Assembly: GCA_049999805.1 (NCBI GenBank)
Contig: JBNGIO010006380.1
Coordinates: 112,769 to 176,768, forward strand
Direction of reading: 5' to 3'
DNA length: 64,000 bases
Origin: Folioceros fuciformis
Lineage: Eukaryota
The translations under genes and the position numbers were made by a program. Under the pieces are notes generated by a model that saw only the letters and a program-made list of their open reading frames with translations, did no database searches and had not been told where the DNA came from. Position 1 is the first letter of the stretch. Each line of letters begins with the position of its first letter. Of the stretch, positions 11,603 to 49,900 are shown one piece after another.

Positions 11603-12987
11603 CGTTCCACCACCCTGCACGAGTGAGACTCGCCGAAACCATCAACCAGCAAACGTGATCATCTTCGCCATCTTCTCGTCAACCTCTCGAATTTCATCCG
11701 AGTCACCTGAAACAGCAGCACCCTGGTCTCAGTGCTCTGTTCAGCAGCAGTGAACGTGCGTAGAATGACATGAGATCGTGATTTGGCAAGCCTCGCATGG
11801 ACGGAACGGATAGCGTGCCCGGATGAATTATGAAATTTACTACGATCTTTGCTGTCCTATCACATCCTGCAGACAGATTTCGTTCAATTCACGTGACAAC
11901 CGTGAAAAGAATTTGCGTAAACACACAATGTAAACTGCAATTCCATGAAGAACTCTTAACATTGATGAAGCTATGGCTTGCATCAAGTCGGGAGGCCATG
12001 TCGAGACTTGCAGTCAGAAGTATCTGATCCTATCTGACATCAGTCTCAGGGACGGATACGGGCATGGATATTGCTACGTCTTCTAGAGATATGTTGCTAC
12101 GTCTTCTAGAGCAAGAGGGAGAACTTCAAAAGCGACTCGGGATGACGTGATTCAACACACGTCTGTCTGCGTGTTCGCGATTATTCCAGCTGCTTCACGG
12201 CGTCTGTGAGGCGACATGAGAAAGCAGAGGTCCAGCTAAACGACAACACTCGAAACCCTAACCCTATCTCCAACCTTCCCTCCACGGTGTCGTAGAGCAA
12301 AAGAAATGGCCACAATTGCTTCCGAGCACCATTCCTCCAGCAACACGATCAACGGACATGGGCTTCTCTCAACAGACTCAGCAGCCGGGTGCAGAGTGCG
12401 GGAGAGCGATGGAGGTGGTCCAAAAACCCTACCATGTCCCTGTTACCCGCCAGTAAATCCTGGGCTCAACAGCGACTGATTGTGGAGTATCTGCTGTCTC
12501 TCGACAAACTGCACGCTGTCCTGGATTCAGGATAACATCCGCTACGTGGAGATCGGATTCCGCCTACCAGACAGTCGAAGGGTTTCGTCGACTTGTACAC
12601 ACTCTGACCATGACAAACACAGACGATTCCAAGAGACTTTATTACGAAAACCAGATGGGAACAACCCATCGTGACATACTGTACTGCACTCTGCGCCGTC
12701 CGAAGTTCAGCACCTGAAACTAAGGACAGAAGATCCATTCACCCATAATGGAAAGTGAAACTCTATCAAAGGCCAACCCAAAAATGCCCATACCTCCATA
12801 AAACATCTTGTCATATAGTTACCATTGCTCATACAAGTTTCTGTGTTACAATCCGCATCCTCGGAACTGCAATCACGAAGCATCTCTGAGTCCATGTATT
12901 TACAAAGCTTAAACTCATCATATTGATGTCAAAGCTTTACAAGTCCATCTCTACTGAGGATGCTACACATGTGATTGTTGTCACGAG

Positions 12988-13174
12988 AATGAAGATTGCA
13001 ACAGACAAACTTCTTGGGCTAAAGAAACCATCTAAGATGTCAATCAAACAATGAAGATTGCAACAGACAAACTTCTTGGGCTAAAGAAACCATCTAAGAT
13101 GTCAATCAAACAATGAAGATTGCAACAGACAAACTTCTTGAGCTAAAGAAACCGTCTAAGATGTCAATCAAACA
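12988..13174. repeat. 62-bp tandem repeat x3
   Basis: aatgaagattgcaacagacaaacttcttgggctaaagaaaccatctaagatgtcaatcaaac starting at 12988, 13050 and 13112. Confidence 0.95.
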
Positions 13175-13361
13175 AAGATGACTATTGAGTTTCAATCAAA
13201 CACCATGACATACAATCAAAGACTGATACCATGATCTAAGGTGGCACAAAGACTGCTTTCTCACTCCAATTGTTCAACAAGCTAATACTACCCTATGACA
13301 AAAGGTCCCAAAGAGTACTCTCACTCGTTACTCTACAATCCCTACAATATCTCACATGCTT

Positions 13362-13478: not shown

Positions 13479-13800
13479 CCTAATTCCTAATAATTTCACG
13501 ATAAGAATGTTCATATTCTATCATCTTTCGCTCATCACCCATTTAGAAAGGATGATAATAATCCAAATATTATAGTGAAAAACATTCTAGGTTCTGATAT
13601 GTAATTAATATTCTATTAGAATCTATATTTTATTATATTATATAATACTCAAATAAAGTAAACTATTTTTAATATTTGAAAAAAGATAAAAAATCCATCT
13701 ACTTCAAAGATGAAGAGGAACACCTCCAACAAGCCAAAGGATACTAGCCTTTTCAAATAATATTTTTTTCAGAACTATCTACCATCCTCAATATATCATA

Positions 13801-14256
13801 ATGCAGTTAACAAAAGGCTTAGACTTGCACTGGTTGTTGTTCTAAAGATTGTATTAGCGCTGCTGCTGTTGGCTTCGGTGTTTTGTATGCCAGACAGAGC
13901 GACGGCGGATGTGTCCCCCAACGTACTGCTCCAAAACCAAGCCCTGTTTGCGGGTGCGGGTCTGCTGTTGCCGCCCTACGAGTTCCTCATGCAAACGGAT
14001 TGCAACCTGGTGCTGTACGACATGAACAGTCCTCTCTGGGCTTCCAACACGTCGAAATCGGCTGTCGAGAGCTGCTACTTCCTTTTGCAGCCGGACGGGA
14101 ATGGTGTCACTCATGACACATGGCAAAATGTGCTCTTCGCCACCGACACCTAGGGCCGCAACGATGGGAAGCACACCATCACCCTCCAGAACGATGGGAA
14201 TGTGGACAAATGACCAAGGTGACACCATCTGGCAGACCGAAAGCTCCGGCCAATAG
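13801..14256 (+). pseudogene. GNA/bulb-type mannose-binding lectin pseudogene
   Basis: QxDxNxVxY-type motifs: MQTDCNLVLYDMNSPLWASNT, LQPDGNGV, LQNDGNV; hydrophobic signal peptide. Lesions: ATG at 13801 out of frame, in-frame TAG at 14151-14153, frameshift near 14203 before DTIWQTES. Confidence 0.85.
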
Positions 14257-14399: not shown

Positions 14400-16751
14400 T
14401 TACTGTCGGTCCCCACAAGAGCAGGCGCCGTCTGAAAAATGGTGCACTCTGTGCGCGTCTCTCACTACGATGGTTCGATGCTCTAGGCGGGACATGATCT
14501 TGGTGCTACTGTGGCAGTCGTTGCACATGCGAAGGTTTTTGGTCACCAGGAGCGGGGTGCCATCTGGAGTGTTTAGGAGACCGTACGCCAAAGCCAGCTT
14601 CTCTGCATGGCCACACAGTGCATCTTCCTTCTCCTGCTCGGACACGGCCTTCAGCACCAGCTCTGTCTGAGATACATGGCCTCCCTCCTCCTTCAGCCTC
14701 GTGTGCACACTTTTCAGCTTGGAAGAGATGTCAGGCCTCTCCTCACCTACGGTGAACTCGTGCAGCTTGTCCTTCACCTCGATGCACGCCTTTGCAGGCT
14801 TCTTCGTCGCACCTGCTGACCTTCTTAAGCTCTCTATCCTGTCCACATCCATCCACCTGCCCGCGTTTGCATAGATGTTGGCCAGCAACACGTATGAACT
14901 TGCGTTCTCAGGCTCCAATGAGACGAGTCGATCGAAACATCGCTTACCACGATCGATGTCACCATGGTTTCTGCAGGCACTCAACAACGATCTCCAACCC
15001 ACCACGTGGTCTTTGAATGGCATTGTCTCCAGTATATGTTCTGCCTCGTCCAGACATCCAAACCGCCCGAGAAGATCAACCAGGCAACTGAAGTGATAGT
15101 CAGTAGGGACGATGCCATGGTCATCCACCATAAGTCTGAAGTACCGCTGGCCCTCTTGCACCAGGCCTGCATGACTGCAGGCAGCAAGAAGACTGCTGAA
15201 AGTCGTCCCATTAGGCTCCAAACCTTGCCTACGCATTTCTTCGAAACACTGCATTGCCATCTGAGCATCACAGTGTTCAGCATAGCCATTCAGCATAGCA
15301 CTCCAAGTTACCACATCTCGAGTGGGCAATCTGTCAAAGATTGCACGAGCGTCCTTCATGCTACCGCACTTCGCGTACATGTCCACCAGGCAGCTACCAA
15401 TTAGGACATCGTTGTCCAGCCCCTTTTCTCGTATCAGAGCATGAAGTTGCTTCCCTTGAAGCAAAGCTCCCACCCCTGCACATGCTTGAAGGAGGCATAC
15501 AAAGGTAACCTGATTGGCGACAGTGATGCCCTCGTGTTGCATACTCCTATACAGACAAAGGGCTTCATAACCCTTACCTTGCTGGACATACCCCGCGATC
15601 ATGGCGGTCCAAGTCACAACATCTCTTCTACCCATCGTGTCAAACACTCGCCGAGCATCCTCTAGGCTCCCACATTTTGCATACATGTCAACTAGACAGT
15701 TTCCAACTACCAAATCGGCCTCGAGTCCACTTTCCCTGAGCTGAGCATGAATCTGCTTCCCCTGATGCAACGCTCCGACGCTAGCACATGCTTGAAGGAG
15801 GCAGACAAACGTCACTACATTGGCTGGAGTCATGCCATTCAGTTGCATACTTGCATACAGATCGAGAGCCTCCTGACCCATTCCTTTCCGAGCATATCCC
15901 GCAATCATTGAAGTCCAGGACACCACATCCCTCGTACGCAGTCTGTCAAACACTCTACGGGCATCCACTAAGCTCCCGCATTTCGCATACATGTTCACCA
16001 GGCTGTTGGTGACAAAGCTGTTGGGCCTCACATCGCTGGCCCGAATATCGGCGTGAACCTCCAAACCAGACGCAAGATCCTCTGCACTGGCACACGCTTT
16101 GAGGACTGCAACAAATATGTGGTTGTTGGGCTTCAGACTCGAGCGTCTCATCTGTCGATACAGCCCCACAGCTTCCATGGGCTGTCCATGTCGGGCATGG
16201 GCCAAAATGATGCTAGCCCACAGATGGGCATCTGGTGCAGTCACTTTGCTGAAAACCTGAACCGCTTCCTCCAATTTCCCATGGGCGGCATACATATCGA
16301 CGATGTGTGTGGCCACGAATGCATTTGACTCGAATCCGCTCTCCAGAGCCAGAACATGCACCCGCCTCCCGAGCTCCAGATCCTCGAGTTCCGTGCACTT
16401 CTTCAGCACACGAGAGAATAGAGAGGTGTCAACACGACACTCCTGCTGCACCAGCCGGTCCAAAGCTCCAACAGCCTCGCTGAGCTCTCCATCCTTACAA
16501 AGCCTTCTAGAGCTTCTGGACATAGAATCCCCTCCACCCTTCCTCTTGTTGCGAACCAGACCATCGCTGCCTGCAGTCCTTGAACTGGACGCAGACAGCT
16601 CCAAAGCCGCCAACCCAGGATTGTGCTGAGCATTTACCCAAACCCCGTGGTACAACTTCTGCCCCACCTCAGGCAGGAGGAAGGTTTTGCAACAGTCCAA
16701 GTCATAGGCTCCATCCCTGGACAGCGGGACTGCGCCAAGGGCGAGCGCCAT
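14400..16751 (-). CDS. PLS-class PPR protein (14 motifs) + E1/E2 + DYW:KP deaminase-like domain (ends DRQ); candidate U-to-C editing factor
   Basis: 783-aa ORF with P-L-S triplets. C-terminus KKPAKACIEV...LCGHAEKLALAYGLLNTPDGTPLLVTKNLRMCNDCH...RDAHRVHHFSDGACSCGDRQ. Confidence 0.93.
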   Translation of the reverse strand: MALALGAVPLSRDGAYDLDCCKTFLLPEVGQKLYHGVWVNAQHNPGLAALELSASSSRTAGSDGLVRNKRKGGGDSMSRSSRRLCKDGELSEAVGALDRLVQQECRVDTSLFSRVLKKCTELEDLELGRRVHVLALESGFESNAFVATHIVDMYAAHGKLEEAVQVFSKVTAPDAHLWASIILAHARHGQPMEAVGLYRQMRRSSLKPNNHIFVAVLKACASAEDLASGLEVHADIRASDVRPNSFVTNSLVNMYAKCGSLVDARRVFDRLRTRDVVSWTSMIAGYARKGMGQEALDLYASMQLNGMTPANVVTFVCLLQACASVGALHQGKQIHAQLRESGLEADLVVGNCLVDMYAKCGSLEDARRVFDTMGRRDVVTWTAMIAGYVQQGKGYEALCLYRSMQHEGITVANQVTFVCLLQACAGVGALLQGKQLHALIREKGLDNDVLIGSCLVDMYAKCGSMKDARAIFDRLPTRDVVTWSAMLNGYAEHCDAQMAMQCFEEMRRQGLEPNGTTFSSLLAACSHAGLVQEGQRYFRLMVDDHGIVPTDYHFSCLVDLLGRFGCLDEAEHILETMPFKDHVVGWRSLLSACRNHGDIDRGKRCFDRLVSLEPENASSYVLLANIYANAGRWMDVDRIESLRRSAGATKKPAKACIEVKDKLHEFTVGEERPDISSKLKSVHTRLKEEGGHVSQTELVLKAVSEQEKEDALCGHAEKLALAYGLLNTPDGTPLLVTKNLRMCNDCHSSTKIMSRLEHRTIVVRDAHRVHHFSDGACSCGDRQ

Positions 16752-16929
16752 CCATCGACAAAATATTCCCTACGCGCCTGAAATAGTTGTCCCCAGCCGT
16801 GGAGGAGGACCCTGCCAGTGACACGGGGTAGATCTGAACGACGATATTCTGGGTTCGAAAATCACACTGCTTGGATGTCTGGATGGTTGCGAATCGATGA
16901 GAACGCAGAACTGAGTACAGTACATATTG

Positions 16930-19900
16930 CTAGTGCCAGTCTCTGCACGAACACGACCCGTCCACAAAGCGGTGGACGCGGTGAGTATCTCTAACGATGA
17001 TCTCTCGCTTCTCGATCCTTGACATGATCTTGGTGCCGCTGTGGCAGTCATCGCACATCCGGAGATTCTTGGTGACAAGCAAGGTCGTGCCGTCTGGTGT
17101 GTTGAGCAGGCCGTACGCCAGCGCTAGCTTCTCGGCATGTCCACACAAGGCATCTTCCTTTTTCTCATCGGACAACGGTTTGAGCACCAGGTCTGTGTGC
17201 GGAACATGGCCTCCATCCTCCTTCAACCGCAAGTTCACGCTCCTCAGCTTGGAGGAGATGTCATCCCGCTGTTCTCCCACAACGAACTCCTCCACCTTGT
17301 GATTCACCTCAATCCAAGCCCTGGCAGGCTTCTTGCAAGCTCCGGCAGATTTTCTCAAAGTCTCTATCCTGTCCACATCCTTCCACCGACTATTGTTTGC
17401 ATAGATGTTAGCCATGAGTACGTACGCAGCAGACTGTTCTGGTTCCAGTTTACGGATGTGATCGAAGGACCGCTCTCCCCGCTCGATGTCACCATGGCTT
17501 CTGCAAGCATTCAGCAGAGCTTTCCACCCTGCCGAGTCACTCTGAACCGGCATCGCGTGCAACATGTTTTCTGCCTCGTCTAAACACCCTGACCGGCCAA
17601 GTAGATCCACCATGCAAGTGTAATGGTACACAGTGGGCGAGATGCCATGCTCCTCCGCCATAGCTTTGAAGAACTGCTTACCCTCGTCTACCAGACCCGC
17701 ATGACTGCATGCCACCAGAAGGCATATGAAAGTTGTCTCATCGGGCTCCACACCCTGCCCGAGCATCTCTTCGAAGCACAGGATGGCAGATCGACTGTCG
17801 TTATGCTGGCCCAAGCCATTTAGCAGAGCATTCCATGTCACCACGTTCTTTGTGGGCAATCTGTCAAACACCCTCCTGGCATCCATTAAGCACCCACATT
17901 TTCCGTACATGTCGACCAGGCTATTGGCCACAGCCACATCCGCTTCCAATCCTCGTTGCTGTATCTCTAGATGAAGTTGCTTCCCTTGTGGCAAAGCTCC
18001 GATGCTGGCACACGCTTTCAAGAGACAAACAAACGTGACGCTATCCGCGGGAATAATGGAAGCCTGTTGCATACTTTCGTAAAGAGCAAGAGCGTCTTGA
18101 CCGAGCCCATGCTGGGCGTACCCTGCTAGCATGGCATTCCATGTGACCACATCTTTAGAGGGTAGTCGATCAAACACTTTGCGGGCATCATCTAGGCTGC
18201 CACACTTCGCGTACATGTCCACCAGACAGTTGCCGACAACCAGATCACCATCTAAGTTCTGTTCTTGAATCTGGTGGTGCATTTTCTTGCCTTGATGTAA
18301 GGCTCCAAGAGAGGCACATGCGCTAAGCAGGCACGTAAATGTAACACTGTCGGGTGGAGTTATTCCCTCATTTTTCATGCTAGCATACACTGCAAGAGCT
18401 TCTTGATAGAGACCATTCCGTGCATACCCGGCTATGATTGAATTCCATAACGCCACATCTTTCGTAGGAACTCGATCAAAAACTCGGCGAGCATCCTCTA
18501 AGCTGCCACATTTTGCGTACATGTCAACAAGGCAGTTGGCAAGCGATGGATCAGCTTCTAGTTGTCTTTTCTGGATATCTGAATGGAGTTCCTTTCCCTC
18601 TTGCAGTGCTCCTATGCTTGCACATGCTTTCAGCAGTGTGGCAAACGTAGTGATGTTGGCAGAAGACAAGTCCTGCTGACGAAGGCCGGAGTAAAGAGAC
18701 AGAGCTTCCTGTCCCTGTCCACGCTGGGCATAAGCTGTGATCATGGCAGTTAATGTCACTATATCCCTCGTAGGCAATATGTCAAACACTCTTCTGGCAT
18801 CCTCCAAGCTGCCGCATTTGGCGTACATGTCCACCAGGCAGTTCCCCACAACCACATCAGCTTCCAGTCCGCTTTCCTGAACCTGAGAGTGCAGCTGCAT
18901 TCCCTGATGAAGAGAACCGACACTTGCGCACGCATTAAGCAGGCACACAAAGGTAACTCTATCAGCGGGAGTTACGCCCTCCTGTAGCATGGATTGATAC
19001 AGATTAAGGGCATCTTGACCAAGACCAGCTTGAGCATATGCTGCAATCATGGCATTCCATGTCACCACATTCTTCACAGGCAGTCTGTCAAACACAATGC
19101 GAGCCTCTCCTAAGCTTCCCAACTTGGCATACATGTTGACCAGGCAGCTACCAACCACCACATCAGCTTCGAAACCTTGTTCTCGAATCTGTAAATGCAG
19201 ATTCTTCCCCTCATTCAGGGCCCCAACGCTAACACAAGCCTTCAGCAGGCTTACAAATGTTACTGGATCGGCCAGAGTGAGCCCTTCTGCTTGCTTATTA
19301 GCATAAAGAGTGAGAGCTTCGCGTCCAAGCCCATGCTCCACATATCCTCCAATCATGGCATTCCATGTCACTGCATCTTTGGTCGGGAGTCTTTCAAACA
19401 GGCTTCTAGCATCTGCTAGCCTGGCACACTTGGCATACATATTCACCAAGCAGTTGCCCACCACCACATCGCGCTCAAGCTGTCTTTCCTGAATCTGAGT
19501 ATGCAGCTGTTGACCTTCCTGGAGTGCTCCAATGCTTGCGCAGGCCTTCAAAAGTGACACAAAGGTCACGTGATCTGCTGGAAACATGCCTTCCTGCTGC
19601 ATCTTTGCGTTAAGAGAGAGGGCCTCTTGACTGCGCCCATGCTGTGCATATCCGGTTATCATGGCCGTCCATGTCACCATGTCCCTTGTTGGTAACATGT
19701 CAAATACTCTGCGAGCATCCTCTAGGCTCCCACATTTTGCATACATGTCCACTAAGCTGCTGCCAATAAGTATATCCGATTCTAATCCCCTTTCCTGTAT
19801 CTGCATATGAAGCTGCTCACCCTCACAAGCTGCTTGAATACTGGCACATGCTTTCAGGAGGCACACAAACGTGACGCGATCTGCTGGTATGCCCTCCTGC

Positions 19901-21418
19901 TGCATGTTCCGATACAATGCCAGAGCTTCTTGACCAAACCCATGCTGCACATATCCTGCGATCATGGCATTCCATGTCACGAAGTTCTTTGCAGGCAACC
20001 TGTCAAACAGTCTGCGGGCATCCTCGAGGCTGCCGCATTTGGAATACATGTCTACCAGACAGCTGCTTACTGTCAAATCAGTTTCCAGTCCTCGTTGCCG
20101 AATTCGGGAATGCAGGTCCTTGCCCTCACGCAGTGCCCCAATACTTGCACACGCCTTCAGCACGGCCAGAAACGTGACACAATTAGCTTCAGTGATCCCC
20201 TCCTGCTCCATACACGAATAGAGAGAAAGAGCTTCTTGACCCAGGCCATGCTTGGCATACCCAGTGATCATCGTAGTCCACGACACCACATCTTTTGTCT
20301 GCAAATTGTCAAAGACCCTGCGAGCATCTTGTAAGCTCCCACATTTGGCATACATGTCCATCAAACAATTGGCGACAAAGATGTTGGGCTGAACTCCACT
20401 TTCCAGGACATCAGCATGGACCAGCTTGCCCGCCGCCAAATCTGCCGCAGCAGCACAGGCTTTGAGTGCAGCGACAAAGACGTGATCATTCGGCTTCACC
20501 TTGGACTTCCGCATTTGCCCATAAAGCGTGAGGGCCTGCAAAGGCTGTCCCTGTTCCGCATGTGCCCCTATGATAGAAGCCCACACGAACGTTCCCGGCG
20601 CAGCAAGAACATCACACACCTGCAACGCTTCCTGCAGCATCCCGTGCGAAGCGTACATGCGGATGATGTGATTGCCCAAGAATGCGTCCGACTCATACCC
20701 ACTCTTCGAAATGAGGGCATGAACATGTCTACCGGCAGCCAGGTCCCTCTGCGAAATGCACCCCTTGAGTACATGATAGAAGAGATAGGCGGGCACATTG
20801 AATCCTCTTTGCAACAAAACTTCCAGAAGGTCCACAGCGTCCCTGAGCTGCCCCTCCTCACATAACCTGCTCCACGCCTCCACGTCGAAAGCATCTTCCA
20901 ACCTTCCACACCTGCAACACCCACCCCCAGTGTGTCAAAACCGTCCTCACCACCCAATTGTCGGCCACATTCCCCAGTAGTAGCAAGTCGACAAATCTCC
21001 TACCTCGGCACACCCCCAATCTGGAAAGCGACTCCCCGCTCCCCAAACCTTCCATCCCAACGACGCTGTGGGTTCTCGGTTGCGCTGTGCACAAAGTCCA
21101 GATTAACGCGGTTGATTCTCTGCAATGTCGCAACGATTGAATGCCCTAACGAAATCCACCCATTCCGGCTTCACTGACCACGCCCAAATCGCTGGCACGG
21201 ATTACCTCGCGCGGCTTGCACTCCCACTCCTTCACCTCCTTCTCCCAGCATGCCTCCCGACCTCCAACAGCCCTGGCTGCAGCCTTCCGTTGCTCCGAGA
21301 CGCCACTCAGTGACGACACCCGCCTGCACCACTTCTCCAAAGTCCCATGGGAGCTGGGATTCCTCTGCAGCAGGCCAAGCCCAGATCCCACGACCCGACG
21401 CCCCTCGCCCTGCCTCAT
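16930..21418 (-). CDS. PLS-class PPR protein (32 motifs) + E1/E2 + DYW:KP domain (ends DWH), about 1436 aa, two 5' introns; candidate U-to-C editing factor
   Basis: The 1323-aa ORF lacks an upstream in-frame ATG. Exons 21418-21206, 21119-21004 and 20911-16930, joined by GT-AG introns of 86 and 92 nt, restore the frame. C-terminus KKPARAWIEV...HAEKLA...CDDCH...CSCRDWH. Confidence 0.92.
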
Positions 21419-21592
21419 CCCCGTCTCCACGCCACACTCTCTGCATCACAAAACTACAATGTACTGTACGTAGAGTCAACCGCCCATCGAACTCCCATAA
21501 CCTAAATGCCACTTTGCTTGGGCTCACAAAATCACGTTCGTGGGCGCCCACAAAACCCGCGTCTCCGTCCGCGGGCAGACGCACCGGCAGCG

Positions 21593-22843
21593 ATGGAGGC
21601 GGCGCAGGAGCAGATCCAGGCGCTGTACGCCGTCCGAGATACGTTTTTCCCAAGCGACCCGGCGGTGAAGAAAGCTCGAGTGTCGGAGCAAATGGCGGCC
21701 GTGCTGGCGGTGCTGGACGTGGTCCCGCCCGAGAGCCGGCGTCAGCCAGGTCGACGCGCGGAATGGGAGTACCTTCGAGGGAAGGCGCTGGACGCCGCGG
21801 CCGACTACAGCAAGGAGGCCGAGGAGCATCTGGCGAAGGCCGTGAAGCTGGAGCCGGGGCTGGTGGACGCCTGGTGCTGCCTGGGGAACTGCTTCTGGAA
21901 AAAGAACGATCTGGAGGCAGCCAAGAACTGCTTCACACAGGCCCTGGCGGCTGGTCCCCACGTGCGCGCTCTGCAGCAGCTGTCCATGTTGGAGAGACGG
22001 ATGGCGAAGGGCGCGCCCGGTGAGGCAGAGGCGGTGGAGGAGAGCATCCGGCTGGCCAAACAGGCGCTGGCTCTGGATGTGACGGACGGGCCTTCCTGGT
22101 ACACTCTGGGGAATGCCTACCTGACCAGTTTCTTTGTGGGTGGCGCGGGCGCTTGGGACCTCCCCAAGCTCCGCCTCGCCCTGAAGGCGTACCAAAACGC
22201 GGAGAAGCATGAGGCCGGGAACTCCAACCCGGACCTGCACTTCAACAGCGCCATCGTCCACCAGTACCTTGAGGATTACGAGCGCGCGCTGCGGGCATTC
22301 CAGTGCGCCGGCGCCCGGGACCCCGGGCTACAGGCGGATCAGCAGGCGGAGAAGTTGTTGCGGCTTCTGGCCCGGCTCTCCGACCTGGCCGGGAGCAAAG
22401 GGAGGATGAAGCCCAAGCGGCTGTCGGCCGTAATGAGCTCCGGGGGCGGGCTGGGCGACGCTGCCGTCCCCGCCTCGCACCGCCCGGTTGGCCTAGACGC
22501 ACTCCAGCAAGGCGTCAATGCTGGTGTAGCTGTGGCCTGCAAGGTGCTGCAATCCGTGGGGCACGACCAGCCGCTGCCGCTTTTCTTCCTGCTGGCAGAC
22601 TCGTCGGAGTCGTGCGTCGTCCTGTCCGTGTACGCTCTGCGGCCCGGCGTGATTAAAGACGCTCAGACTGTGACTCTGCTGGATCCCAATTTTCGGACCG
22701 TCTCCGTCGCCTGGCAGAATTATGAACTCCGCTACCGAGCTGTGCGGGTCGACCATCCTAAGCAAATTCTGCTAAATGGCCGCTCTCCTTCCGTGCAGGA
22801 TACAGTCCGCTCCACCATCCATGCCCATCATGTGCCTCCATGA
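21593..22843 (+). CDS. TTC5: Tetratricopeptide repeat protein 5 (TTC5/Strap) homolog, single exon
   Basis: LYAVRDTFFP; YLRGKALDAAADYSKEAEEHLAKAVKLEPGLVDAWCCLGNCFWKK; LDVTDGPSWYTLGNAYLTSFF; NPDLHFN; C-terminal OB-fold-like end YRAVRVDHPKQILLNG. Confidence 0.9.
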   Translation: MEAAQEQIQALYAVRDTFFPSDPAVKKARVSEQMAAVLAVLDVVPPESRRQPGRRAEWEYLRGKALDAAADYSKEAEEHLAKAVKLEPGLVDAWCCLGNCFWKKNDLEAAKNCFTQALAAGPHVRALQQLSMLERRMAKGAPGEAEAVEESIRLAKQALALDVTDGPSWYTLGNAYLTSFFVGGAGAWDLPKLRLALKAYQNAEKHEAGNSNPDLHFNSAIVHQYLEDYERALRAFQCAGARDPGLQADQQAEKLLRLLARLSDLAGSKGRMKPKRLSAVMSSGGGLGDAAVPASHRPVGLDALQQGVNAGVAVACKVLQSVGHDQPLPLFFLLADSSESCVVLSVYALRPGVIKDAQTVTLLDPNFRTVSVAWQNYELRYRAVRVDHPKQILLNGRSPSVQDTVRSTIHAHHVPP

Positions 22844-32914: not shown

Positions 32915-35383
32915 ACCAAGAAATGTATACGCGGCCGCCTCCCCTCGTGCGTCTGCTCCTAGACAGGTCTGTTTCCGAATGTTATCCATATCCTGTTCTG
33001 TTAATTGGTGTGCAAGGAGCGCACATAGTAATGGCACTGAGCGTCGAGTCACCCACTCTACTCTATTACGAGATTCCTTAGCAATGGCAATCTGCCGCCT
33101 CTCTTCTGTCTCGAAGCGGTCACCGTCCTGGTTTCTCAATAACACAGACGCCCATGCTGTGAGAGACAGTTGGCAGTCGTCCTGGTTAACCCGCCCAGTA
33201 GGATACAGTCGGCAACGTTGTCCTCGGAAAACGAGCAACCGTCTCCTGCGCGTGGCTTCCACGATCTCCGTACATGCGCCTGGTGTGTGGCTGTGTACAA
33301 AATGGCGAATTCCGCATGACCTCTCCGCCTCAATGGCGGGACTCTAGAGATTATGGTGCTCTGTTCATCGTACAGTCACGGGATAATGTGGTCTTGATCC
33401 TTCCCTCCTATGACCGCCAAGTGGAGGGAGGAGAACGTTGGGAGGACAGACTGTAGAAAGTATGAACTTTTCTCTAGCTTACAACAATATATTATTATTA
33501 TTATATTTACTTTATCTCTTTTTTTAATGTATGAATAGATCTCAATGATTCCAAGTTCATAATCACGTACCAGATTAAAGCGCGAAATAGTTTAGGGATT
33601 AGTAACACGAAATAAAGCTGTTTCAGAATGTTAATTAAAAATATTCAGATGTTATACCTAAAAATCCACATGCATACATACTGGACGAGGAATGCGCAGT
33701 AATTGGTGTACGTGCGAGTGATACGAGATGTTGGATGAATGCAGGGGGTGATGTTCAAAATTCAAAGCGCAGTGTCCCAGTTTGCGCCGGCTCCCGCCAG
33801 GGTCCCGGGTCCCTGTCCGGCAACCCTCGGTTGGTTTGTCCGTTGCTCAATAAAATCGGTGTCCCTATTTCCGCGTGCAGTAGTGATACTGGCATGTGTG
33901 CAGGTGCCTGCCTGTTACAGGATCGAGAGCCAGATCTGGTACTAGGTGTCGGCGCAATGGCTCCTGTGTTGTACTGACTTCCCGCCTTCCGGCACCAGCA
34001 ACAGCACCAGCAAGGGGGGCCTGGCACATTTGCAGTGCAACATTTTCCCTCCGGATCGCGCGGCCGCTGCCACCGGGCCCCTCTCTCATCACTATCCATG
34101 CGGCCAGCTCCATCTCCCAGGCCGTCTGCACCTCCTGCTGGGCCCCATCGCAGTTACAGCTATCTACTCTACTACCGTCGAGCTCTGCAGACCCGCGCAT
34201 CAGCCTCCCTCGCGGCCTGCCTTGACAGCCTGCTGCATCTCCTTCTCCTGTCCCGATTTAGCTCTGCCTTCACGGATTGGCACTGCGGGTGCGAGTGCGG
34301 GTGTGGCGTGGGAGTTCCCCCGAGACGCTCTGGATAGTAGGCCCCTCCAGCTCCTCCCTCCGGGGATGATTCTTGCTGCGTGATTACAACTTCACTTGAA
34401 CATCCCAGCCTCCTGATTTGGTTCCCACCGAAGCAGTGTCCGGGCTGGAGGATCGTATCGCTTTCTGCCCGCCTACAGGAGTGGTACAAAAGCGCTACAG
34501 GAGCGCTACATCGGCTGTACAGCAGGCCCGCAAGAGCTCTACAGGAGCTCTAAACAAAGGCGCTGCCGGAGCTGCCGGGATTTTAGGCCGGCTCAAGCCG
34601 GGCCCTCCCTTTGCTCTCTGCGCCCGGGCGCTTGTTAATTCCCTTGTTACTCTCTGATCTGCCGGACATCGGGTCTGGAACCTTGTTGCCTCCTGGAGTC
34701 GTCAAGGCCCCCTTGTTGTCCAGACGCCAATGCGCAGAACGGAAAGTCATGCGGACTTCATTTCCATAGCCCAGAGCTTGGAAGGTTCGAGCAGCTGCAT
34801 CAAGGCCGTGTCTTCCTGGGATCGCCATGAGGCTGGAGCACAGAGATTGGCGCCCTTGTCCCCGTGACCAGGCCGAATTCGGGCACTCTTGCTTCCCCTG
34901 TCAATGCAATCCATTCTCCTCGTCAGATCAAGTGCTGTGAGCTTCGGAGGCTGAGTCAGGAGTCTGCCGGCGAATTGGTGACACTTCGAAATCAGGTACT
35001 TGCTCGTGTACACGTCGAGAGGCTGTCTCTTTGCCTGCTCCTTCCCTCGAAGATCTGGTGTGATGTCGGCAGCCTTGGGTGCTCGTTTTCTCCTGCAGTT
35101 GTAATCGGTGATCACTGAAACGTATGTCCGACTTCCTCTTGGCGTTGTGCAGGCAGGGGCGGCGGGATGAGTTTTTCATTCGGGCGATTGCGGTCTCCAT
35201 TTGGCCATCTGTATCAGCCGCACAATGCTAGGAAGGGACAAAATCCTCTCGACGCAATGCATTTATCTTCCATCCGTAAGTATCCGTGCTCCTTTGAGGG
35301 ACTTTGTTCTCGGCACTCGTGTGGAAGCTGTCATGGGGCGCCGTGCTGAACTGAACATATAGGCCTGTTTGTGTCTCTCAGAA

Positions 35384-37703
35384 ATGCAGGATTCCTCTGA
35401 ACTGGTGCCTATATCGTCTGTGGTGGGCACTCTCATCAGTTTGTATAACCAAGTGGATGCGCTGATAGACGAGGCCAAGATCAAGGACCAAGTAGCCTGG
35501 GAGCTGCAAACAGACCTTCGCTTTCTCCCCTCCGTTGTAGCGGAGGTGATTCCCGCCTTGAATACCGGGAACAGCCACTTCGACAGAAACTTCTTCCGAG
35601 TGGTACAGCTCATGTGCAAAGGTCTAGAGGAGGCAAGGGGAGCCCTGGATGAGTATATATTGGCCAATATCCACATCCTGCAGCTACGGACTCTAAGTCG
35701 TCGTCTTGCGGATGCAAGGAACCGCATTAGGCATGCGGTCTCTCTGTACAATACATACTGCAACACCCATCAGATGACCAAACCTGGGACAGGACCAGAG
35801 ACCAACAGCTCCATTGAAGTACAGGAACCCAGAAGGATAAGCAACGTGTGTTCCACCGACCCGCTTCTCAAGTTGAAGGAGTCGCTCCAGGAGCTGGAAA
35901 ATGCTGCGTCTCAGCCATGTCCCAGGAAGATACTCAAGCTTGTGGCCAGGCTGAGAACCAGTAAGTACAACTTGGGCTCCTCCCTGTACAAGTCCTTCAC
36001 CATGAACGAGCTGGAGCACTTTTGCAGAGTGGGCGGGCTAGAGGCTCTGGTGCATCTCCTCAGTTGTCCTTCTCACACGGTGCAGAAGCAGACCATGGCC
36101 AACCTGCAGAGCCTGGCCTCCGACCTGGAGACTCGAGAGAAGATATGCTCCACAGCAGGGGCGCTGGAGCAACTGGGCTCCCTCATTATCTCTGCTACTG
36201 GAGACATACAGTACGGAGCTGTTGCCATCGTGAGGACCCTGCTCAAGAACAACGACAGGATAGATGTCAGGAGATTTGCTCTTCCCGGAATCATCCCCAA
36301 GCTGATGCAGCTCTTGGCGATCAGCTCTCCCAGAGTGCAGGCAAACGCCGTTGGGGTTCTGTGGGAGCTCTGTGTGGTGCCACAGCATAGGTTGAGCATC
36401 GCAGGCTTTCCAGGGGCTGCTGGAATATTCGTCAAGCTCTTCAGCTCTCCAGCTCCTGCAGTGCAATTTTGTGCAGCAGCTGTTTTACAAAACCTTTGCA
36501 GAGAGAAATCATTCCGAGGAAACGTCCTGGCTATTCCCTCACCCCCGGAGAAGCTTCTCGCACTCCTTGGGGCGGACGTACCGCACATTCCATCTTCTCG
36601 GAATCAGGTCTAAATTCAAAATCTCTCACGTCGATGCTGCAGCAATCCAGACTTTACGCTCGATCAACTCTCCTGACTAACGCTGAGAACTGTGCATCTT
36701 CCTGTAGGTGACAAGGAAACGTGAAGACCTTGCTTCGGCAGGAGTGATCGGATGGGCGGTGGCAAGCCTTGAGGCTGAGACTCACGCAGAGCAAATGAAG
36801 GGCCTGGATGTTTTGCAGAGGTTTCCATCTCCTCTCATGCAGATTGCTGTTTCAGAGGGCGCCGTGTTGAGGCTGGTCGGACTTCTTTTCTCAGAATCTA
36901 CTGTCATCCAGGAAAAGGCTGCCATAGCTCTATGGAGACTATCCATTCCTGATGAGAACGAAGTGACGATTGCAGCCCAGACGTCTTCCATCTCTAGGCT
37001 GGTTGCCATGCTCGACTCTCCGGTTCTCAGCGTTCAAGAGAGTGCCGTCAAGGTTCTTGAAAGCCTCTCCTTCAATGTGGACAACAGGAAGCGGATTGGA
37101 GATGAGGAAGGTGCCATACAGAAGCTCGTTGATCTGCTCTTTCTCGACTCTCTTGGTGCCCAAGCAAATGCAGCAAGTGCCCTGTGGAACATCTCCAACA
37201 CCACCACTAAGAACAAACTCAGAATTGGCGCTGCGCCGGGAGCTCTTCAGAGACTGGTGGACCTTCTTGCTTCGGATTGCACTCTGGTCCAAGAAAAGGC
37301 AGCTGGGGCTCTTATGAACCTTTCCTACAATGGGTCCAATCGCAGGTGTATCTCCAGCGTACCCAATGTCTTCCTCAGATTGGTCGACCTGCTTGAGTCC
37401 ACGTCCACCTTGGTCCACCAGAACGCTGCAGGTGCCTTGTACAACTTGTCAGTGACTAGTGATAATGGTCAAGCTATCGCAAACACCAAGGGAGCTCTAC
37501 TCAATCTCACTCTCCTGCTTAAGAGCATGTCCACTATTGTTCAGGAGTACGCAGCTGGCGCTCTTGCCAATCTGGCATTCAGCGAAGAAACCAAGGAATG
37601 GATCAGGCAAGTAGGGGCTATTCCTTTGTTGAAGCAGCTCAAGCAATCAAGCTCTCAAGCCGTTAAGACGCAAGCCAAGAGGGCTCTAGACAACTGTTCA
37701 TGA
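35384..37703 (+). CDS. Armadillo-repeat protein with N-terminal helical-bundle domain (2 exons; intron 36608-36707)
   Basis: Repeated ARM motifs (VQANAVGVLWEL, IQEKAAIALWRLS, AQANAASALWNIS, VQEKAAGALMNLS, VQEYAAGALANLA). A phase-0 GT-AG intron joins the two ORFs. No U-box motif seen. Confidence 0.88.
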
Positions 37704-38264: not shown

Positions 38265-38834
38265 CTAATGATGGCCTCCTGGCCGACCTCCCGCTCCGAT
38301 GGTCTTAAGCTGGAATATCTGAGTGCAAACAGGGCACTCATACGGTTCTCCCTTCTTTAGCCTGAACCAAACCACATCATGCTCGTCTTCACCCACACCT
38401 CCTGAACAGCCAACAATACGCTCGTCGAAGTGCGACGGAATAATGGCAGGCGCTTCCTTGGTGCCAAAAGGCCCACGGGGAGGTTCCATTTCAAAACGCT
38501 GCTCGCCCCGGAGCTCGGCTTCCAATTCCTCACGTTCCAGACCCGTAGCATGTTGCAGGCTCCTATCGCTCAAAGCCGAGGCATCGCTCTTCTTCGCAGA
38601 ACTCATCAACACACGGCTCCCATGCAACCATCCACCTGAGCATGAGAAACCACGGTGCGGCTGCGACGAAGAAATCCACAAAATCTCATTTTGGAAACCC
38701 AGAGATGATGCGACACTCTGGGAAGGGGCGGCAACTCCACCCGCGACACCACCTGAGGTTGTGCCTCCCGCAGCGGTGCCACTGCTGCGCAAGATCGCCC
38801 CGTGGCGGAGAAGCCTGCCCAACGACCTTGACAT
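38265..38834 (-). CDS. COX5B: Cytochrome c oxidase subunit 5b, mitochondrial, intronless CDS
   Basis: HATGLEREELEAEL...GPFGTKEAPAIIPSHFDERIVGCSGGVGEDEHDVVWFRLKKGEPYECPVCTQIFQL; Arg/Ser-rich presequence. Confidence 0.95.
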   Translation of the reverse strand: MSRSLGRLLRHGAILRSSGTAAGGTTSGGVAGGVAAPSQSVASSLGFQNEILWISSSQPHRGFSCSGGWLHGSRVLMSSAKKSDASALSDRSLQHATGLEREELEAELRGEQRFEMEPPRGPFGTKEAPAIIPSHFDERIVGCSGGVGEDEHDVVWFRLKKGEPYECPVCTQIFQLKTIGAGGRPGGHH

Positions 38835-40891
38835 GTTTCCAACACTCCGAATTTCGAGCTGGACTCAACAAACCTACCCAGATCCAAATTCGTAAAGAAT
38901 CAACCCCGCCTCAAAAGTTCGCTTAAGGCCTCTGAACCTGCCGAAAATGCGCAAATTATAGTTAAGGCACACATCTCGATGATAAAGGCTCTTTACCAAA
39001 TTTCCCTCTGCAAAATCTTCAGCAGAACATGGCGCCGACCAAAAAGGCTCTTCATACACCTCCGCTGCACCGCATGAAGGTCCCTTCCAACAAGCATGCT
39101 CTATCAAGCAAGATCAAGCCGCACAATGCAGCTACAGAAGTCATCACATACAGCAACAACTCGTCAACCCTAGTGCAACACAGTCCAGCCGGCATCACAA
39201 CCAACAGATCTCACACATTCTCACAAAAAACGCATACAGCCTCACTGTAAAATTCCCCGTTACACAACCAGCACCGCAACAACGAGCCACAAAACCACAA
39301 AACTTGCAGTCTACTCAAGATTCTACTCACACTCAGACCGCGGCAGCCCCAATCTTCCCGTGCCGCAAAAATCCAACACTCTGCTCACGCCTGGCGATGA
39401 CATTCAGAGCAAGCCCTTACCAGCATCCAGTACAGAAGTCTGTTAAGGACCTCCCAAGCGTTTAGCTCTGAGCAGGGAAAATTCCTGCAATCTTCTGGAT
39501 CGGGAGCACTCGCAGATGGAACACGATGTCACAGATCCGAGCTGTGCCACTACACGCTTTCAGTGCGAGGCGGAAGTGATTTGCTCCCGCCAGCAGGCGA
39601 TCAGGCACAGAGCGGAGGAAGCGGAGAGAAAGTACAAATATTAGGCCGTAATAACGTAGCTAGGGTTGCGGCAGGGGAATTCGCATAATGTGTAATCGGG
39701 GGCCGGATTGTTTCGCTTCCCGTTGGCTTTCTTTATGTTTATTCTTAACCTCCGTGTCAGTACCCCACGTCGTTTTTTCCCTCAAGCATTGGGGGAGTAG
39801 GTCGGACAGGGACTCCAGATGTTTTTTTATTAAAATACGTATTTTATACACAAATATTCTATAGAATCTAAGGAATATTCCCCTATTCCCTGCCACCCTT
39901 CCAAATTTTTTAAAATATCTCTAACCACTTTGTGGACCAAAAGGGACATAGTCTATAAGAAATCGCCTGACGATTCTTTAAAGAGCGACGCAGGTCGCGA
40001 CGGTGGGTGTGCCTTCGTTGCATGGATTGTGCTCTCCTCCCTTGCTTTTCCGCCCTACTGCCTTCTAGAACTCGAAATGCAGCGCTGGGTTGCTTCCAAA
40101 ACCTCAATTTTGCTTTGGTATGCTTGGTTTGGCTACAAGCAAACGTGGCGTTCAGAGGTTTCGAGTTGCCAATGTGCGGAATTTAATGTTCAGGTGCTTG
40201 GAAACAAGCTGACACCAGAGCATGGCTCTACAATCCCGAGGGAGTGAGGACCAGACCACTCGGCATCAATTCCGCCCCAATCGGCAGGTTTCTCCCGGCA
40301 CTTGCAAAGTGATGATTTTCCCCCTTCCGGGCAAGCTTGGATATTGGGGATGAGATTTGCAACGGGAATGCCAGGGATTATCCCCAAGCTTTCATCCTTG
40401 ACGCGGTTTTGTGGCACCCGTTCCTGCAGCACTAGGAATTCTCATCTGGAAGCTGGACGCAAACACTTATCTGGACAACCCGGTGCTAGAGAGGATAAAA
40501 TAGGAGCGTGGGTACAACCACTAGGTACGTTGGAAGTGTTAAATTCGTGTTGTGCAGCATCGAAGTTTCTAAGATCTCCTCATCTGCTCTTGGCATCGGT
40601 TTGAAAAGTCAAGGGTCATGGCAACCAGCTCAAAGATAGCCTTCGGTCGCTTATGTTAGAGATGACCGGTGGCGTGCCATGCGCAACATTTTCTTGCCTT
40701 TGTTCCACAAATCAAGTATCGTGAACTACCTGCTAGTGATGACAGAGTGTGCCGACAAGCTGTGCACCATCCTATAACACTTGGAGACGAGATGGACCNN
40801 NNNNNNNNCGACAAGCTGTGCACCATCCTATAACACTTGGAGACGAGATGGACCGGGACATGAGGGATAAAACAAAGTAGGTGTCCCGTTC

Positions 40892-46945: not shown

Positions 46946-49900
46946 ATGGAGGGATCGGAGGTGGACGCTGGGGACAGGGGTTTAGGCTTTGCGGAGGATT
47001 TTGGTCAGAAGGTGGACCTGACTCAGAGAATTCGGGAGGTTCTCACGAACTATCCAGAGGGGACGACAATTCTGAAAGAACTGATTCAGAATGCGGACGA
47101 TGCAGGAGCCACCCGGGTGTGCTTCTGTATCGATCGCAGACAACACGCAGCTGAAACCCTCTACCATGCACCGTTGGCAGAATGGCAGGGCCCGGCATTG
47201 CTGGCTTTCAATAATTCCCAATTTTCTGAAGAGGATTTTGAGAGTATCTCCAGAATCGGAGACAGCAAGAAGCGGGGGCAGGCCTGGAAGACAGGGCGTT
47301 TCGGGTGAGATTCATTGGCTGTTGAGGTTGGCCGTGGGCGCGATTGTGTGTCAGGTCGTGTCGTGTGGCAATCGGGTGGAGTGTGAGGAGTCTTTTTGCT
47401 CCTGTGTTCACAAGTTTGGTTCTCTTGTTTTACAGGATTGGCTTCAACTCTGTGTATCATCTGTCCGACTTGCCATCTTTCGTTAGCGGCAAACATGTGG
47501 TGCTTTTTGATCCACACTGCAAGTTTTTGCCAAGAGTGAACAGTGCGAATCCAGGAAAGCGCATCGACTTTGTCAGCACTGGTGCTTTGCGGCTGTACCG
47601 TGATCAGTTTGAGCCTTACTGTGCGTTTGGATGTGACATGGAGAAGCCGTACCAGGGAACACTCTTTCGTTTCCCTTTGAGAACAGTGCGGCAGGCAGCT
47701 GTTAGCCGTCTGTCCCGACAGTCGTATTCTGAAGATGATATGACGCTCTTGCTTCATGAACTCTACACTGAAGCCACATCGGCTTTGCTCTTCTTAAAGA
47801 ATGTTGAGACAATTGACATTTTCGACTGGAAAGTCGGTGCTGACAGCCCCACCAAAGTGTACTCGTGCAGGGTAAAATCGCCAACGGATGAGCTTCGCTG
47901 GCACAGACAAGCATTTTCGAGGTTGGCAAGGGGAACGCCTTCAGTGGCCTCGTCAAATATCCATGACATCTTTAAGATTGAGTTTGTCAGGGAAGTTTGT
48001 GCTCGAGATGCACGAGGGCAAGAGGAGGCTGAGGTCTTCCTACTTTCTCAGTGCATGGGTGGACCAGCGAGCAGAATCTCGGTGATGGCTACGAATGCCG
48101 CCAAGGAATACGACATTCACCTAGTACCTTGGGCTTCTATCGCAGCAAAAATCTCGGGAAAGGAGGAGGGGGTGGGTTGGCAGATGCTTCTTTTGTTTTT
48201 GAAAGGGTAAGACACACTTGGTACACATCTCAAAGACTAATGCTCACTCCTGCCTTCTCGTGTCCAGGACCTTGCTTCCAGCCGTATGGAAGGTCGAGCG
48301 TTTTGCTTTCTCCCTCTGCCTGTTAAAACAGGTCTACCTGTCCATGTCAATGGCTACTTTGAACTCTCGTCTAATCGCCGCGATATCTGGTATGGAGGTG
48401 ACATGGACAGGGGAGGTAAACTGAGATCCGATTGGAATCAATGTCTTCTGGAGGATGTAATGGCTTCAGGGTATGCAAAGCTCATCCTGGAAGCTACCAG
48501 ACTCGTTGGGTCGTCGAAGCTGTATGAGGCCTTGTGGCCATGTGGTACTTTTATCGAACCCTGGCAAGGAATGGTCAGGAGTTTCTTTAAACAGGCCGCT
48601 AAGCTTCCTGTGTTGCATTCTTCTGCTCAGGGTGGTAAATGGATCACTCCATTACAAAGTTTGTTTCATGATGAGCAGTTTGTTGATCCCGACGGCCTCG
48701 CGGAAGCGGTCGTGGCAGAAGACTTGCTCCTTGTGCGTTATCCAGATTCAATGCTGAGGATGTTGTTTACTTACTGTGTGCCTAACCCACACATGGTTCT
48801 CCCTAGTGCTATTCGTGCACAGCTGAGCAGGCCTGGCAAACATGGAGGCCTGGTGAACAGGAAGAATGCTCTGGTCCTGTTGGAATATTGTCTTGCGGAC
48901 GTGATTGATGATGAAGCTGGGGACCTTCTGGCCGGCCTCCCCCTAATACCCCTTGCGAATGGGAGGCTTGGTGTGTTTGGGAAAAAAGCCAGCAAAAGTC
49001 TTGTATTTGTTTGCACAGAGTTGGAGTATAGGTTGCTTGCACGCCTACCAGAGAAAGCCTTAGATCAAGGTATTCCAAATAGGCTTCTACAGCGGCTTGA
49101 TAGCATTGCAAAGGTTGCAAGCACAAACCTGAGGCAGCTTAGTGATGTGGAGCTGGCTCAAGTTCTGTGCTACCTCATGCCAGCAGAGTGGAAGGATCAG
49201 GAAGAAGTGGAGTGGAAACCTGAGTTGGTGGATAACCACCCTACCCAGGAATGGCTTATACTTCTTTGGCGATATTTGAAGCTGTGCTGCAAGGATTTGT
49301 CTGTTTTCAAGGAGTGGCCTCTGCTGCCAACAACGGACAATTTTCTATGCAGGCCCACATCCATGTCGAAGGTAGTGAGAGGTGGGGTGTGTAGTGCTAA
49401 TATAGAAAGCCTTTTGAGAAAGCTGGGATGTCGCATCTTGAGATCTGATTTTCCTCTAGAACATGCACAGCTGGCACACTGTGTGCATGATGCCAGTGGG
49501 CCTGGTATCTTAGATGCAATAACCTCAGCTGCACTCAATCAGGTGCCACGTCTTCAAACAATGTTTGAAGCTGTAACAGGTCTAGAGAGGCGCGAGCTGC
49601 GGGAGTACCTCTATCAACGAAAATGGTACTCAGGGGATCAGATGAATGAGGCCCGCCTTCGAATATTTCGAGCACTGCCAATTTTTGAAGCCTACGATGA
49701 GGTCAACCCTGTCGTCAAAGTATTTGTGGACTTGAGTGGTCCTAAGAGATTTTTGGCGCCCTCTGATATGGAGGAAGCACTTTTGGGCACAGAGTTTCTC
49801 TACACTGCATCTGACAGAGAAGTGGAAGTGCTCACTGGACCTTTGGGTATTAGGAAACTTGGAAGAGCTGCCTTTTACAAGTGGAGGGTGGTTGGTCGTG

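Follow-up and report, generated by a model that had tools for sequence, protein, structure and literature searches.

The DYW:KP proteins are a class of pentatricopeptide repeat (PPR) proteins that was defined by two studies of 2020 (as cited in PMC9478123, PMC11332814 and PMC10226603; for all papers given here by PMC number, our statements refer to the passages of the source available to us) and that is confined to the hornworts, the lycophytes and the ferns, which are the lineages showing U-to-C editing (PMC9478123, PMC13386178). The alanine in the HxE motif (HAE) is specific to this class, and DRH and GRP are distinct hornwort variants, or subgroups, of it (PMC9478123). Its presence and abundance correlate with U-to-C sites, which the PPR arrays match (PMC10226603). 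In this study, we examined two neighboring genes, called gene A and gene B, in a stretch of 64,000 nucleotides (nt) of Folioceros fuciformis (assembly GCA_049999805.1, contig JBNGIO010006380.1, positions 112,769 to 176,768 of the forward strand), referred to below as the window. The locus had been singled out by an original prediction made from the DNA letters, whose statement that DYW:KP proteins occur in lineages with U-to-C editing (hornworts, ferns and some lycophytes) agrees with PMC9478123 and PMC13386178. By analogy with the systems described below, we consider it likely, with a probability of roughly 70%, that both genes encode organellar, site-specific U-to-C editing factors of the DYW:KP family.

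In the literature that we found, U-to-C editing is the one pyrimidine transition without a characterized natural enzyme, and the activity data come from consensus designers. Three of seven such designers, namely, KP2 and KP3, which are based on GRP, and KP6, which is based on ferns, carried out U-to-C editing in Escherichia coli, and the activity was abolished by changing HAE to HAA and CxxC to AxxA (PMC9478123). Furthermore, Lys88 is essential for U-to-C editing, and its replacement gives C-to-U editing (PMC11845758). The designers crosslink to RNA in bacteria, and an attack of the lysine on uridine C4 has been proposed to supply the nitrogen, while the native resolution of the lysine-RNA crosslink is still open, the synthetic enzymes being contrasted with the native ones (PMC11332814). 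It follows that the view of the amination chemistry as unresolved, held in the original prediction, no longer applies to the designers, for which a Lys88 donor model has been published (PMC11332814, PMC11845758), and is left with the fate of the crosslink in planta. None of the titles and abstracts listed by our literature search reports that a native DYW:KP protein was tested for its function. Since the activity data come from designers that are crosslinked to RNA, an intact and expressed native DYW:KP gene is a usable test object. The pair considered here offers a DRH-like domain on a tract of 15 motifs and a domain that is neither DRH nor GRP on a tract of 33 motifs.

Architecture and motifs of the gene pair

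Gene A and gene B are head-to-tail neighbors on the minus strand, at approximately 14400 to 21418 of the window. The frame of gene A runs through 783 codons without a stop or frameshift, and that of gene B is open from 16930 to 20934, that is, 1334 codons, again without a stop or frameshift. The Pfam matches to PPR/PPR_2 (E values of 2e-67 for gene A and 2e-152 for gene B), E_motif (4e-17 and 1e-17) and DYW_deaminase (PF14432; 1.2e-36 and 1.8e-34) place the domain assignment of both genes far above chance. The gene pair is real, and neither frame is interrupted in its PPR tract or its catalytic domain, in agreement with the two intact genes of the original prediction. The features of the two genes downstream of the 5' end of gene B are as follows, with the evidence for each in parentheses (ORF, open reading frame; aa, amino acids; AF2, AlphaFold2).

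14400..16751, minus strand: gene A, complete single-exon coding sequence of PLS-class PPR-E1-E2-DYW:KP type (ORF, ATG start, 783 aa, Pfam domains)
14400-14402, minus strand: stop codon TAA of gene A (ORF)
14403..14801, minus strand: DYW:KP domain of gene A, 133 aa, with KPAKACIEV start and DRQ end (motifs, AF2 fold, tree)
14538-14540, minus strand: Lys88 of gene A (motif)
14601-14609, minus strand: HAE of gene A (motif)
14802..15005, minus strand: E1 and E2 of gene A, 34 + 34 aa (Pfam, segmentation)
15006..16514, minus strand: PPR tract of gene A, P' L' + 3x(S-P-L) + S + P2 L2 S2, 15 motifs, residues 80-582 (segmentation)
16752..16929, minus strand: spacer of 178 bp from the stop of gene B to the ATG of gene A (spanned by one contig of run X2, 15979-18241)
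16930..20911, minus strand: main exon of gene B, with PPR tract, E1, E2 and DYW:KP (ORF, Pfam, contigs of run X2)
16930-16932, minus strand: stop codon TAG of gene B (ORF)
16933..17331, minus strand: DYW:KP domain of gene B, 133 aa, with KPARAWIEV start and DWH end (motifs, tree)
17068-17070, minus strand: Lys88 of gene B (motif)
17131-17139, minus strand: HAE of gene B (motif)
17332..17535, minus strand: E1 and E2 motifs of gene B (segmentation)
17536..20877, minus strand: PPR tract of gene B, P' L' + 9x(S-P-L) + S + P2 L2 S2, 33 motifs, 1114 aa (segmentation)

In both domains we could notice HAEKLA, with HAE at domain residues 65-67, and Lys88 within TKNLRMC. The CxDCH motif reads CNDCH for gene A and CDDCH for gene B, and the catalytic and zinc-binding residues are all retained. 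Compared to PG-type structures, 3-4 residues are missing at the xHP site of both domains, in line with the class criterion of a domain of 132/133 aa devoid of the xHP residues, and in the alignment to the PG-type DYW structures 9kfx and OTP86 the query shows gaps opposite ...SHPQTKEIY.... The KPAxAxIEV start, HAEKLA, CxDCH, the DRQ and DWH ends and the absence of the SHP segment, which the original prediction had listed, were all recovered in both genes.

Upstream of the catalytic domain, both genes present the PLS-type tract followed by P2-L2-S2, E1 and E2 that serves as a criterion for the DYW:KP subgroup. The tracts are built of regular rows of 101/102 aa in both proteins (S of 31 aa, P of 35/36 aa and L of 35 aa), and about 80 residues precede the first PPR motif in gene A. 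The first motif, P', is degenerate and spans 29 aa; omitting it leaves 14 motifs in gene A and 32 in gene B, which are the counts that had been given earlier. In gene A, a tandem repeat at 15437-15994 (period of 306 bp, 1.8 copies, 76% matches) corresponds to PLS triplets 2 and 3, which have identical code residues (ND, TN, VD), and represents the trace of a relatively recent triplet duplication. The tandem-repeat scan returned no array inside gene B, and the one in gene A was the single array overall, so that a recent triplet duplication is visible in gene A only.

For the E2 and DYW region of gene A, the AF2 model built on a 42-row alignment reached a predicted local distance difference test (pLDDT) score of 91.8. 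Its best fold match was 9kfx_A, a synthetic PPR-DYW/RNA complex, with a query template modeling score (TMq) of 0.92 and 48% identity, and the model also matched 7o4e/7o4f (OTP86) and 7w86 (DYW1), with E values down to 1e-10. No KP-type structure occurred among the PDB sequence matches (three, all PG-type) or among the fold-search matches. The canonical C-to-U editing factors of DYW:PG type (OTP86, DYW1 and the synthetic 9kfx) share with genes A and B the PLS-E1-E2-DYW layout, the deaminase fold and the invariant H, E, C, C, H and K. However, different from these factors, genes A and B present KPA in place of the PG box, HAE in place of HSE, the deletion of 3-4 residues at the xHP site and DRQ or DWH in place of DYW.

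Phylogenetic placement and origin of the pair

A homologue search with the E2 and DYW region of gene A as the query returned 64 proteins. The 35 closest (P0001-P0035), which include one EukProt transcript, show 52-83% identity and KP-type boxes, the highest value being that of P0001 (83% over E2 and DYW); the matches from named organisms reach at most 45% identity to the same region. In these 35 KP-type matches the HxE motif is HAE in 32 cases and HVE in 3, and the C-terminal triplet is DRH in 11, GRP in 4 and another one in 20, with no case of DYW. The other 29 matches (P0036-P0064) have HSE (29/29), PG-type boxes (..PGCSW..) and ..YW/..FW-type ends. Because the end triplets vary this widely among KP-type proteins, the DRQ and DWH ends, which are indeed present and had been put forward as natural variants to test, are not special features of the pair.

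The 64 matches and the two genes were combined in a maximum-likelihood tree of 66 DYW domains, from which no row was dropped. Support is given below as ultrafast bootstrap/Shimodaira-Hasegawa-like approximate likelihood ratio test (SH-aLRT), for a bootstrap that had not fully converged, and the KP, DRH and GRP labels derive from motifs and end triplets rather than from curated references. A branch with support 100/96, present in 100% of 200 bootstrap trees, sets the 37 KP-like rows apart from all the others. Gene A falls inside a DRH clade (96/86), in which DRH is the end triplet of 11 of the 15 database rows and which is sister to the GRP clade (96/83), and gene B pairs with P0017 (ending in DRY; 95/82) outside the clade made of DRH and GRP. 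Both genes lie on the KP side of the 100/96 branch, apart from the PG-type proteins, so that the class proposed for them at the outset withstood the phylogenetic check; every sequence criterion tested, together with the tree, assigns gene A and gene B to the DYW:KP class.

Hornwort DYW:KP proteins of the DRH subgroup were reportedly described by Gerke et al. in 2020. Like gene A, hornwort DRH proteins have a domain of 133 aa with KPAxACIEV, HAE, TKNLRMCxDCH and ...CSCGDR- near the end. They differ in that gene A ends in DRQ, whereas gene B ends in DWH and stands outside DRH and GRP, subgroup labels here being taken from end triplets and from PMC9478123. The designers KP2 and KP3 (GRP consensus) and KP6 (fern consensus), compared by their description, belong to the same class and share HAE, CxxC and Lys88 with genes A and B. 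However, the designers are consensus proteins with a tract of three triplets and an Arabidopsis target, whereas the proteins of the pair are natural ones whose tracts comprise 15 motifs (gene A) and 33 motifs (gene B). In the available passages of the designer papers (PMC9478123, PMC11332814, PMC11845758), no activity is reported for the subclades of gene A (DRH-like) and gene B (DRY/DWH-like).

The original prediction had regarded the pair as the product of a local duplication followed by gain or loss of repeats. At either end, the two genes are collinear; they share 60% identity across 675 aa, and 54% across the 516 aa of the N-terminal part. By part, the identity is 73.7% in the DYW domain, 63% in S2-E1-E2, 59% in the last triplets and 58% in the atypical first triplets, with a range of 44-74% across segments, and the central triplets are approximately 53-72% alike regardless of the gene of origin. 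However, in a BLAST comparison with all fetched proteins, at least one unlinked database protein scored above the neighbor in each of the five segments, and the two DYW domains fall in different supported subclades. Since unlinked proteins match better and the DYW subclades differ, the common architecture is a trait of the family and not of the pair. On these sequence comparisons, made with a set of proteins smaller than the host's whole family, a recent tandem duplication is rejected, and a gain or loss of repeats after it finds no support; an ancient one may have occurred, but nothing marks the two genes as a pair. Gene A and gene B are best regarded as neighboring, separately evolving members of a large nuclear PPR family.

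The pair represents two of very many equivalent candidates, because the class has been known since 2020, its members were counted in 22 hornwort genomes (PMC13386178), and hornworts possess more than 1400 PPR proteins (PMC10030945). Nothing that we found sets gene A and gene B apart from the other members of this large and already catalogued family, of which they are ordinary members. With the PPR tract of gene A as the query, the ranking of homologues was driven by the number of repeats and orthologues were not found; the best identities were 53-57% in proteins from Logan assemblies and did not exceed 50% in named proteins of lycophytes, ferns and conifers.

Predicted function and competing explanations

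A role in U-to-C editing is what is ordinarily deduced for members of the DYW:KP class, and for both proteins of the pair we infer organelle targeting, target identity and reaction direction in the same way, by analogy. Import into plastids or mitochondria would come first, and the PPR tract of each protein would then bind one RNA site, or a few, with one motif per nucleotide and S2 at -4. The nucleotide four bases downstream of the tract would then enter the zinc-dependent active site, formed by the His and Glu of HAE and the Cys of CxDCH, and a uridine in this position would be converted to cytidine, as by the designer DYW:KP proteins. It is possible to hypothesize that Lys88 attacks uridine C4 as the nitrogen donor and that a Schiff-base intermediate is resolved to cytidine.

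In the PPR code, the fifth and last residues of a motif specify the base, T/S+N corresponding to A, T/S+D to G, N+D to U and N+N/S to C/Y. Reading these residues in the P and S motifs, with S2 set at -4, gave the predicted code G A? n U A n U A n G A n ? for gene A, from -16 to -4, and ? A? n U A n A U n G G n U U n A U n U A n U U n U U n Y U n G for gene B, from -34 to -4.

The points that weigh against a U-to-C role concern the direction of the reaction, the competence of DRH-like domains, the N terminus of gene B and the nature of the contigs that cover the genes. As regards direction, the two proteins could natively be C-to-U or bidirectional editors in spite of their DYW:KP sequence, which we regard as improbable. 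KP6 also performs C-to-U editing in human (HEK293T) cells (PMC9478123), and its E64G-L113V-F133H variant is active in C-to-U only (PMC11845758); all three of these states (G64, V113 and H133) occur in gene B, and two of them (G64 and V113) in gene A. However, the same three states are the consensus of natural 133-aa KP domains (PMC11845758) and of the family. The catalytic residues are common to KP and PG-type domains, and so is Lys88, which was invariant in 42 of 42 aligned rows, 7 PG-type rows included; this alignment covers 42 of the 66 sequences, P0025, P0032 and most of the near-identical grass PG rows being left out of it. Lys88, although present in both genes, cannot tell the KP from the PG class. 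For the U-to-C direction speak the hornwort-based KP2 and KP3, which perform U-to-C editing only (PMC9478123), and the correspondence of class abundance and PPR arrays with U-to-C sites (PMC10226603) mentioned above.

Alternatively, the PPR tracts could serve the stabilization or processing of organellar RNA rather than base conversion. PPR proteins as a whole have such roles, and the 33-motif tract of gene B is very long and unusual for an editing factor; however, the E1-E2-DYW module is complete in both genes and its active site is intact, and we consider this explanation very improbable.

One or both genes could also be inactive or decaying, either because gene B is devoid of a proper N terminus and targeting peptide or because DRH-like domains are unable to edit alone. 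In fact, KP1, a designer derived for the most part from the DRH subgroup, in which gene A also falls, does not figure among the three of seven active designers (PMC9478123), and with more than 1400 PPR proteins in hornworts some members may be redundant. In the main frame of gene B, also when only the 92-nt intron described below is removed, the first in-frame ATG lies at 20658, inside the third PPR motif, and PPR-like sequence extends upstream of it. The features upstream of the main exon are as follows.

20912..21003, minus strand: intron of gene B, 92 nt, GTAGGA...TTGCAG, splitting an AG|G codon (contig of run X4, splice signals)
21004..21119, minus strand: upstream exon sequence of gene B, in frame with the main exon (contig of run X4, sequence)
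21120..21205, minus strand: predicted second intron of gene B, 86 nt, GTAATC...TTGCAG (sequence alone)
21206..21418, minus strand: predicted first coding exon of gene B, as a hypothesis, with ATG at 21416-21418 and 71 codons (sequence)

The 92-nt intron is indicated by contig 22 of run X4, from a related organism with approximately 6-7% divergence, which joins 20910 to 21003 and is then contiguous to 21440. Moreover, the collinear match of run X2 contigs ends at 20909, with 85 letters remaining, and that of run X6 contigs at 20913, with 25 letters remaining. Upstream of the supported splice donor, the reading frame runs into a TGA at 21171-21173 before any ATG, and the X4 contig, which is the sole contig over this 5' region, leaves 21120-21205 unspliced. 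Removal of both introns brings the ATG at 21418 into frame and gives a complete ORF for a protein of 1436 aa, and we lean slightly toward this two-intron model of gene B. The end at 21418 given in the original prediction does coincide with an ATG, but the latter is in frame with gene B only after the removal of the two introns. Two other starts were discarded: read straight through from the ATG at 21418, the frame stops at TAG 21146-21148, and an ATG at 21055 is out of frame with the supported donor.

As regards expression, run X2 has the same organism code as the DNA run X1, and the RNA status of X2, X4 and X6 was guessed. Contigs of X2 match with zero mismatches at 14490-15174, 15979-18241, 18213-19060 and 19951-20909, and in the silent control region 12401-13334 X2 gives no cover where X1 has a depth of 8-12, which suggests that the X2 cover behaves like RNA. 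Both genes are also covered by RNA-like contigs of two related organisms, at approximately 6-9% DNA divergence. The X2 contig at 15979-18241, which extends over both genes, may reflect read-through, overlapping untranslated regions or a merge in the assembly, and does not imply a single transcript. This cover, the 783 and 1334 uninterrupted codons, the conserved catalytic and zinc-binding residues and the complete ORF of the two-intron model all argue against decay, which we judge unlikely for the pair.

Compared to these alternatives, the reading of gene A and gene B as U-to-C editing factors is the one that we prefer. Within it, and as an improbable proposal, gene B (33 motifs, at least 1334 aa, DWH end) and P0017 (DRY end) could belong to a DYW:KP subclade distinct from the DRH and GRP groups on which designers were based, one with a different native catalysis, which may consist, e.g., of an efficient turnover without a trapped crosslink or of dual-direction editing. 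If this were true, the resolution of the lysine-RNA crosslink in planta, which the designers do not reveal, could be learned from a natural protein of the pair.

Neighboring genes

The genes around the pair are ordinary nuclear genes of a plant. Head-to-head with gene B, a TTC5-like gene occupies 21506-22843 on the plus strand as a single ORF of 445 aa, with tetratricopeptide (TPR) repeats and a TTC5_OB domain, and its product shows 53-61% identity to the best named moss, fern and lycophyte homologues alike, which places the organism in none of these well-annotated groups. Taken together with the DRH and GRP ends of the closest DYW relatives, the spacer of 178 bp and introns of 86-92 nt, this makes a hornwort the probable host. 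An X2 contig over this gene starts at 21402, and the X4 contig at the 5' end of gene B reaches 21440; the two units may have a common bidirectional promoter or overlap at their 5' ends. On the other side, an ORF at 13761-14153 on the plus strand, convergent with gene A, has a hydrophobic N-terminal stretch, and an X2 contig at 13768-14517 covers it and overlaps the 3' end of gene A. Considered as a candidate lectin-like gene, this ORF has no Pfam match at an E value of 0.001 or better.

Farther away in the window, an armadillo-repeat protein is encoded at 35363-37703 on the plus strand by two ORFs that approximately 95 bp, probably a short intron, separate from each other. A COX5B match (E value of 1.4e-19) marks an exon at 38265-38864 on the minus strand. 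The region at 47326-60507 on the plus strand contains long ORFs of 294, 2001, 545 and 1184 aa, two of which have Sacsin domains (PF25794; E values of 5e-42 and 2.5e-79), and is assigned by these domains to a giant sacsin-like plant gene. Between 42001 and 44000, the G+C content is 0.34, versus approximately 0.5 in the rest of the window.

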